Both the position numbers and the translations under genes were made by a program. From NCBI GenBank assembly GCA_001929475.1, contig LXFE01000294.1, forward strand, positions 1 to 38,726: a stretch of 38,726 nt of DNA, in the 5' to 3' direction. Of the stretch, positions 3,452 to 4,399 are shown piece by piece (the stretch's first letter is position 1; each line of letters begins with the position of its first letter). The notes beneath the pieces were generated by a model. It did no database searches and was not told where the DNA came from. It saw nothing but the letters and a program-made list of their open reading frames with translations. Source of the DNA: Neolecta irregularis DAH-3. Its lineage: Eukaryota.

Positions 3452-4399
3452 TTACAAATCTGCATCGTCTTCGTCTAAACAGTCAGCAAAGACACCAAAG
3501 AGGTCATACCGGGCAGCGGCTGGGCCTGAGCATGTTCCAGTTCCTGTTGATATTGTGCAAGAGTTTCAGGTGAAATTTGGACCTCTGGAGGTGCCAATGC
3601 AGGACTGGCGACAAATTCCAAAGATGAGTTTCCAACGAGCTTTCTTGCTAACCAGAGGAAAGGTTTCTCGAAATTGTAATTAGACTTTGCAGAGATATCG
3701 TAATATTGGAGATTTTTCAGATCCATTAGCCTATCTTACGCTATGGGAGGTACCTTTCTATGGAAAGTAATCGACTTGGCCTTGACCTTTCGATCTTTAA
3801 TATCGACTTTATTACCGCAGAGAACGATCGGTATGTTTTCGCATACACGAGTAAGATCCTTGTGCCAGGTCAAGACATTCTTGTAGGTAATTCGAGCAGT
3901 CACGTCAAACATAATAATCGCACATTGTCCTTGAATATAGTAACCTAAAGAATTCGTCAACGTGTACACTGACGTGGAAATCAAAATACCATCTCTCAGA
4001 CCTTCCAGGTTAGTAAACAGATATCACATCGAATCATACCTCCGAATTTCTCTTGTCCAGCGGTATCCCAGGTGTTGAAACAAATTTGTCCGAAATTGGT
4101 GTGGAAATTGATAGGATGGACTGGAACATCAACACCTGGTTTCGCTTCTCCTGTCGCGAAATACCTTCCACCCCGAGCGTAGCAATATACTTCTTCTCGA
4201 ATTCGCCAGTCAAATGTCGTTTAACGAAGGTTGTCTAAACAAATAAAGATCAGCCGCCTTGCCCTGTGAATTTTTCACTGGTGATAAGTCTACCTTTCCA
4301 GTACGTGCTAGAGAATTAGAATTGATGCAATTTTCGCGGTGGCATATCTCCATCGCCGACAAGGACGAGCTTGAAAGTCGGGACTTCTTGCTGGGCCAT
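3452..4399 (-). CDS. GSP1: Ran GTPase (Gsp1/Spi1), 8 exons
   Basis: [47 protein letters not shown]...[20 protein letters not shown]...NKVD...[30 protein letters not shown]...DEDDADL*. Requires an AT-AC intron (4305-4347) and a GT-TG intron (3718-3753). Confidence 0.97.

Follow-up and report, generated by a model that had tools for sequence, protein, structure and literature searches.

The Ran GTPase gene of Neolecta irregularis DAH-3, an early-branching ascomycete (Taphrinomycotina), raises the question of how an intron with AT at its start and AC at its end is removed from the transcript of an essential gene, and by which spliceosome. The gene lies on the minus strand of contig LXFE01000294.1 (GenBank assembly GCA_001929475.1), of which positions 1 to 38,726 were analysed (the window). 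An initial annotation of this sequence had placed an AT...AC intron within the P-loop codons of Ran, at positions 4305-4347. These coordinates turned out to be exact, as exon 1 ends with ...GATGGAG at 4348 and GTACTGGAAAG resumes at 4304. The 43-nt segment (intron 1) is truly removed from Ran mRNA, as was confirmed by transcript contigs. It very probably represents a genuine U2-type (type II) AT-AC intron of the apparently single expressed Ran/Spi1 gene that is removed efficiently, in the sense that no unspliced or AT-AG form occurs among the assembled contigs, to which minor isoforms are invisible. We infer that the major (U2-dependent) spliceosome performs this removal.

Removal of intron 1 from Ran transcripts

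The spliced frame comprises 215 codons and a stop codon. Over 215 of 215 residues, the predicted protein shows a gap-free alignment with Spi1 of Schizosaccharomyces osmophilus at 86% identity. For twelve further Ran proteins of fungi and protists, identities range from 80 to 88%. Exon 6 alone matches 45 distinct solved Ran/Gsp1 sequences (best E value 1.5e-34), where it aligns with residues 79-141 of full-length 216-residue Ran chains. Full-length similarity, the P-loop GDGGTGKT and an acidic C-terminal tail identify the product as a member of the Ran/Gsp1/Spi1 GTPases.

The initial annotation had stated that only excision of the AT...AC segment restores the P-loop. When all models restricted to canonical introns were enumerated from the ATG to the end of exon 3, 145 GT/GC-AG candidates yielded 321 models that have an open frame and contain one or two introns. 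The Walker A motif G-x4-GK[ST] is retained in 0 of the 321. Use of the AG located 3 nt upstream of the AC would indeed give the sequence GDGARTGK, as had been pointed out.

Ten public sequencing runs share sequence with the window, namely X1, X2 and eight root metatranscriptomes with small shares; four of the ten were compared with it in detail. Run X1 contains 99% of the sampled words of the window, is labelled 'DNA?' and is a possible source sample of the assembly. Run X2 originates from the same study, carries the same label and contains 50% of the sampled words. Runs X3 and X10 are root metatranscriptomes from two other studies, in which a close relative that is approximately 93-95% alike was found. 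Spliced contigs with the joint of intron 1, including the predicted RNA junction 4348^4304, are present in three of the four runs (X2, X3 and X10) and lead from 4348 through the micro-exon (exon 2) into exon 3.

Record 10 of X2 (180 nt, depth 1214) lies on 4433..4348 and 4236..4182 with 0 differences, by which the 5' untranslated region of Ran extends to at least 4433. The nine letters between its two pieces correspond to the micro-exon, the last two letters of which match the end of intron 2 and were therefore aligned as part of the right-hand piece. The remaining junctions are held by X2 record 8 (715 nt, depth 818.6, two differences in total), in which the 3' untranslated region runs on to at least 3300. 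All seven Ran junctions were found in both X3 record 11 (834 nt) and X10 record 7 (929 nt). Transcripts of the relative in these two runs show the same joint, and their micro-exon differs by one synonymous change. The letters of exon 2 and of a second micro-exon, exon 5, were located between the respective joint sides in contigs of X2, X3 and X10. The intron 1 boundary cannot slide, because the letters at both boundaries differ: the last exon letter is not the last intron letter, and the first letter of intron 1 is not the first letter of exon 2 (ambiguity 0). Depth in X2 is zero across the intron bins and all X2 contigs at this locus lack all seven introns, for which reason X2 is taken as RNA-derived, although it is labelled otherwise.

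It was considered whether the junction could be an artefact, i.e. a misassembled or mis-sequenced GT-AG intron, template switching during complementary DNA synthesis, or an unexpressed pseudogene. Such an origin could be suspected on the grounds that X1, the sole DNA run with this stretch, may be the source sample, that diverged spliced Ran-like contigs occur in X1 and X2, and that the public annotation holds no full-length Ran here. However, both termini would have to be wrong together, yet re-assembly of the raw X1 reads gave a contig (record 1, depth 410) that covers 3300..4389 with 0 differences and has no GT/AG at the boundaries. This letter-for-letter agreement indicates that AT and AC are present in the reads, and it makes unlikely the assembly error that the initial annotation had raised; X1 is probably the source specimen and hence does not represent an independent individual. 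The direct repeat at the boundaries that template switching needs is lacking, and the same junctions occur in the RNA of two further studies. Across all exons, transcripts at depths of 818-1214 show 0-1 differences from the window copy and encode an intact Ran of 215 amino acids (aa), whereas the other Ran-like contigs carry mismatches, insertions or deletions. We therefore regard an artefact as exceedingly improbable.

The diverged, intronless Ran-like contigs (records 2, 3, 4, 5 and 9 of X1 and X2) fall on window positions 3754..4449 and have depths of 198-2820 (402-2820 for those of X1), compared to approximately 410 for the genomic contig. Insertions or deletions accompany the mismatches in several of them, and one forms part of an X2 contig of 4.4 kb. 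A family of processed pseudogenes or another organism may be their source. Whatever they are, the exact and abundant transcripts of the window copy indicate that the Ran gene on this contig is intact and expressed, and not the pseudogene that had been considered as an alternative.

In the public gene set, Ran of this strain is represented by a fragment. Among proteins of 37-121 aa, exon 7 as a query retrieved P0241, a 79-aa protein of the same strain that is named spi1 and is 100% identical, while none of the 120 matches listed among proteins of 122-2000 aa exceeded 87% identity. P0241 (window 3452..3735, minus strand) begins at an ATG within intron 6, and exons 1-6 and the AT-AC intron are unannotated in this model. 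With a 79-aa fragment as the public model, gene finders limited to GT/GC-AG introns evidently lose an essential gene at this locus. As a separate observation, public fungal Ran predictions of 129 aa were numerous among the matches listed (e.g. P0052, P0075, P0092 and P0103), a hint that the models of several ascomycetes break down upstream of the exon 6 region.

Splice signals and the responsible spliceosome

Read on the minus strand, intron 1 starts with ATATGCC and finishes with TAGCAC. Its donor, ATATGC, equals the local GTATG donor with an A at position +1. The letters TATG at +2..+5 are common to intron 1, Ran introns 4 and 7 (GTATGA) and one intron of the SWR1 gene in the window (GTATGT), and TAT at +2..+4 is found in four of the six other Ran introns. 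Apart from +1, the donor of intron 1 thus matches the U2-type consensus of the organism, as far as this can be derived from a small local sample of six Ran and four SWR1 introns.

Each of the seven Ran introns contains one YTRAY pentamer at 8-15 nt from its 3' end. In intron 1 this is CTAAT, the A of which is 11 nt from the 3' end; the same pentamer occurs in intron 6. It represents a putative U2-type branch motif at the usual distance, and its second A is the candidate branch nucleotide. The unused AG is 8 nt from this A, and 8 nt is also the distance between the 3' site and the second A of the branch-like pentamer in four of the six other Ran introns. Nevertheless, the transcripts of intron 1 use the AC at 11 nt. 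The U2-like character that the initial annotation had ascribed to ATATGC and CTAAT is borne out by this comparison with the U2-type introns of Ran itself. Its proposal that the AG is skipped owing to an interaction between the first and the last intron nucleotide is reasonable.

Based on these signals, the donor AUAUGC would be recognised like the ordinary GUAUG donors of Ran despite the A at +1, the branch would be formed at the second A of CUAAU, and the second step of splicing would pick the AC 11 nt downstream over the AG at 8 nt. The choice of AC would follow from the first/last-nucleotide interaction described for engineered yeast introns, because an intron starting with A needs C, and not G, as its last nucleotide. 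The acting small nuclear ribonucleoproteins would be those of the major spliceosome, and a minor AT-AG isoform is presumably absent.

Alternatively, intron 1 could belong to the U12-type AT-AC introns, in intact or decayed form, and depend on a minor spliceosome retained in Neolecta. AT-AC termini are the classic minor subtype, and the ATAT at +1..+4 equals the minor consensus. A short distance between branch and 3' end is typical of minor introns, and the 11 nt in intron 1 are within this range. However, distances of 8-15 nt are equally normal for the ordinary introns of Ran. The donor ATATGCCA agrees with the U12 consensus RTATCCTT at 5 of 8 positions, compared to 4-6 of 8 in the six GT introns of the gene, and departs from it at G +5, C +7 and A +8. 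According to the donor rule given for this consensus, only C-to-T changes at +5 or +6 are tolerated (PMC2846911).

The branch region does not point to the minor spliceosome either. A pyrimidine-rich branch resembling TTTTCCTTAAYY, the motif given in a passage of PMC1557818, is not found at the right place of intron 1. The best match of intron 1 to the U12 branch form TCCTTAAC is 5 of 8 and lies at a non-branch place, whereas neighbouring introns reach 4-5 of 8. For the extended pattern (a TTTTCCTT-type run, AA and two pyrimidines), the best match is 8 of 12 at intron position 17, which is off the CTAAT site and within the range of the neighbours.

Surveys of the phylum agree with this result. 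In passages that refer to whole phyla and do not name Neolecta, no convincing minor introns are reported for Ascomycota or Basidiomycota, most or all minor small nuclear RNAs (snRNAs) are described as lost and minor introns as absent from Dikarya (Larue and Roy 2023, PMC10639083), and U12 splicing is listed as missing in Ascomycota (Bartschat and Samuelsson 2010, PMC2846911). At this level, the lack of a minor spliceosome in most ascomycetes that the initial annotation had stated is in accordance with the literature.

Intron positions in other Ran loci provide additional means to judge the origin of intron 1. Eighty Ran loci were obtained from metagenome contigs by a scan with the exon 7 peptide; the best of them show 80-82% protein identity, no close relative of Neolecta is included, and the sample is uninformative on the timing of intron gain within the Neolecta lineage. 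The exon encoding the P-loop was readable in 68 of the 80 loci and was not found in the other 12. The position of intron 1 is free of introns in all 68. In 43 of them the P-loop exon is uninterrupted, many of these being short spliced contigs. A GT or GC intron occupies exactly the intron 2 position in 19 loci, and six have an intron one codon beyond it, in phase 1.

As far as this sample can show, the AT-AC intron sits at a lineage-specific position, and there is no sign of an ancient minor intron there that could have been inherited. Of the two readings offered in the initial annotation, an AT-AC intron of the major spliceosome in an essential gene is therefore supported, whereas a U12 intron part-way through conversion to U2 is left without support. 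Taken together, a U12-type intron appears very unlikely: it would share the terminal dinucleotides, the ATAT start and the short branch distance with intron 1, which differs from that class in its donor, its branch, its unshared position and its occurrence in a phylum reportedly without the machinery. An introner-like origin was considered and rejected, since no look-alike of any Ran intron was found elsewhere in the window (best matches of at most 14 nt, E values of at least 0.26).

The remaining introns of Ran show different degrees of conservation among the same loci. The position of intron 3 is common to nine loci. No intron was found at the position of intron 4 in 76 loci or at that of intron 5 in 67 loci; instead, some related fungal loci form a group in which the intron lies a few codons further downstream. 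The site of intron 6 is uninterrupted in nearly all loci, although in L036 and L058 a GT-AG intron is located within one codon of it. Judged from this sample, the position of intron 6 is not exactly shared with any locus. At the conserved intron after the P-loop Lys, L045 and L046 (3335..) have the GC donor GCAAGT, while the others have GT. The public protein P0031 carries a 7-residue insertion directly after this Lys, i.e. at the conserved intron position.

A removal independent of any spliceosome was also weighed, either by an endonuclease and a ligase, as for HAC1/XBP1 or tRNA introns, or by self-splicing. Termini other than GT-AG would be compatible with it, and Gould et al. left such a route open for the AT-AC intron of yeast RPL30 (PMC5029451). 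However, intron 1 resembles the six ordinary introns of Ran in its length class, in the TATG core of its donor and in the spacing between YTRAY and 3' end. No stem-loop cleavage motif of the IRE1 type was seen on inspection at either boundary. An RNA structure bridging the splice sites was rejected, as the fold of 4365..4225 does not stand out from those of shuffled sequences (z = -1.73; 11 of 200 shuffles fold equally well). This alternative has hardly any probability at all.

Several points weigh against the assignment of intron 1 to the efficiently spliced introns of the major spliceosome. The absence of minor snRNAs is drawn from literature on the phylum and not from Neolecta itself; an Rfam scan of the 38.7-kb window detected only a 5S rRNA. 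The donor ATATGC differs from the /ATAAGT of metazoan U2-type AT-AC introns (PMC5029451), though it fits the local GTATG. Contigs cannot reveal rare isoforms, which limits the claim of efficient splicing. In addition, the diverged intronless Ran-like contigs in X1 and X2 and the label 'DNA?' of X2 have to be counted here.

Gene structure and other features of the window

The exon ends were located by a script and assembled into a model with eight exons on the minus strand, starting with the ATG at 4399..4397 (Table 1).

Table 1 Coordinates of the Ran exons and introns and of the 5S rRNA gene on contig LXFE01000294.1
Feature	Position	Strand	Length (nt)	Remarks
Exon 1	4348..4399	-		Ends with GATGGAG; phase 1 in second Gly codon of GDGG
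Intron 1	4305..4347	-	43	AT...AC; joint in X2, X3, X10
Exon 2	4294..4304	-	11	Micro-exon GTACTGGAAAG; finishes Gly and encodes Thr-Gly-Lys of the P-loop
Intron 2	4235..4293	-	59	GT-AG; phase 0 after P-loop Lys
Exon 3	4165..4234	-		Transcript contigs and gene model
Intron 3	4121..4164	-	44	GT-AG; joint in X2, X3, X10
Exon 4	4040..4120	-		Transcript contigs and gene model
Intron 4	4002..4039	-	38	GT-AG; TACTAAC branch
Exon 5	3990..4001	-	12	Micro-exon; Leu-Arg-Asp and parts of two Gly codons
Intron 5	3945..3989	-	45	GT-AG
Exon 6	3754..3944	-		Aligned with Ran residues 79-141 of solved structures
Intron 6	3718..3753	-	36	GT...TG, or GG...CT if shifted by one letter
Exon 7	3510..3717	-		Transcript contigs and gene model
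Intron 7	3475..3509	-	35	GT-AG
Exon 8 (coding part)	3452..3474	-		Acidic tail; stop codon TAA at 3454..3452
5S rRNA gene, dispersed	8524..8642	-		Rfam RF00001, 83 bits

A search for tRNA genes in the window found none. The window further contains an SWR1 open reading frame of 1174 codons. Its product is 99% identical to a protein assigned to Neolecta irregularis DAH-3 in NCBI and UniRef, and the next relatives are found in Saitoella (51-66%) and Pneumocystis (approximately 50%). The public SWR1 model P0121 removes 14 in-frame residues as a 42-nt GT...AG 'intron' (approximately 20396..20437, minus strand). This intron is probably false, as it cuts the conserved C-terminal region of the helicase. 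Because 14 conserved helicase residues are spliced out, P0121 was rejected as a source of trusted introns, and the four SWR1 introns used for the comparison of donors were read directly from the sequence.

Known AT-AC introns and the case of intron 6

U2-type AT-AC introns are rare, with 24 cases given among 608,562 U2-type introns of five species (0.003%) by Sheth et al. (PMC1557818). Those of SCN4A and SCN5A need the major snRNAs by experiment (Wu and Krainer 1997, cited in PMC1557818). The Neolecta intron resembles these human introns in combining AT...AC termini with a donor and a branch of the major type, in being constitutive and in being needed for the reading frame. It differs from them in its donor, ATATGC instead of a strong /ATAAGT, in its length of 43 nt, in its occurrence in an ascomycete, and in its position next to an 11-nt micro-exon with an unused AG 3 nt upstream of its end. 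Dependence on U2 is experimental for SCN4A and SCN5A, whereas for Neolecta Ran it is deduced from the signals.

Closer to Neolecta, an engineered AT-AC intron is spliced in budding yeast, which lacks the minor spliceosome (Parker and Siliciano 1993, as cited in PMC5029451). Yeast itself has an endogenous AT-AC splicing event inside the RPL30 intron, with a share of approximately 1-2% of RPL30 mRNA (Gould et al., PMC5029451). In these Saccharomyces cerevisiae cases, as in Neolecta, an ascomycete removes an AT-AC intron and the pair of a first A and a last C replaces G-G. However, the RPL30 event is non-coding, has a donor unlike any consensus and gives a minor product (PMC5029451), whereas the Neolecta intron is the sole productive route to an essential protein and its spliced form was assembled at high depth.

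For filamentous fungi, AT-AC II introns were hypothesised in xylanase genes (PMC1557818), and AT-AC introns appear in fungal annotations (PMC7072748). Like intron 1, they are found in lineages without minor splicing. These cases are hypothesised or at the level of annotation, while the Neolecta junction is backed by transcript contigs and an invariant motif. An AT-AC intron in Neolecta was not mentioned in the literature searched, and the main text of the Neolecta genome paper contains no mention of introns, splicing or transcriptome data.

Based on these comparisons, the Ran intron falls under an exception that is already known but has few natural cases, and it does not constitute a new kind of intron. 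The new aspect is a constitutive AT-AC intron in an essential ascomycete gene, which is publicly unannotated and ends beyond a skipped AG. Constitutive AT-AC introns that occur naturally and do not belong to the minor system are very rare, and the literature found for ascomycetes comprises a side product of 1-2% in yeast and hypothesised cases. Intron 1 provides a natural case of the rule that a first A requires a last C in the second splicing step, on which an essential gene depends while a competing AG is bypassed.

A second intron of the same gene departs from GT-AG. The joint 3717^3754, present in X2, X3 and X10, skips the 36 nt of intron 6 with an ambiguity of one letter. This intron has an ordinary GT donor and CTAAT at 8 nt from its 3' end, and no AG follows the branch. 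TG as a 3' splice site of U2-type introns has been reported for human alternative acceptors. In contrast to these, intron 6 showed no acceptor other than the TG, the use of which is constitutive in three runs.

With the AT-AC and the GT-TG intron, two of the seven introns of the essential and highly expressed Ran gene are non-canonical, which is far above the usual rate. It is conceivable, albeit rather doubtful, that the major spliceosome of Neolecta is unusually tolerant of intron termini, such that lineage-specific short introns would be non-GT-AG at a frequency on the order of percent. The 3' site would then be set by the distance from the branch and by the compatibility of first and last nucleotide instead of by AG. 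This suggestion is drawn from the two odd introns, from the position of the AT-AC intron, which is shared by none of the 68 loci, and from the 8-nt spacing of four of the six others; a sample of one gene cannot establish a frequency.

If such tolerance exists, the public gene set of the intron-rich Neolecta would be systematically broken at introns of this kind, like the 79-aa model of Ran. Should the ends of intron 1, as a young or lineage-specific intron, prove typical of Neolecta, the species would lend itself well to research on the birth and tolerance of introns with unusual ends.

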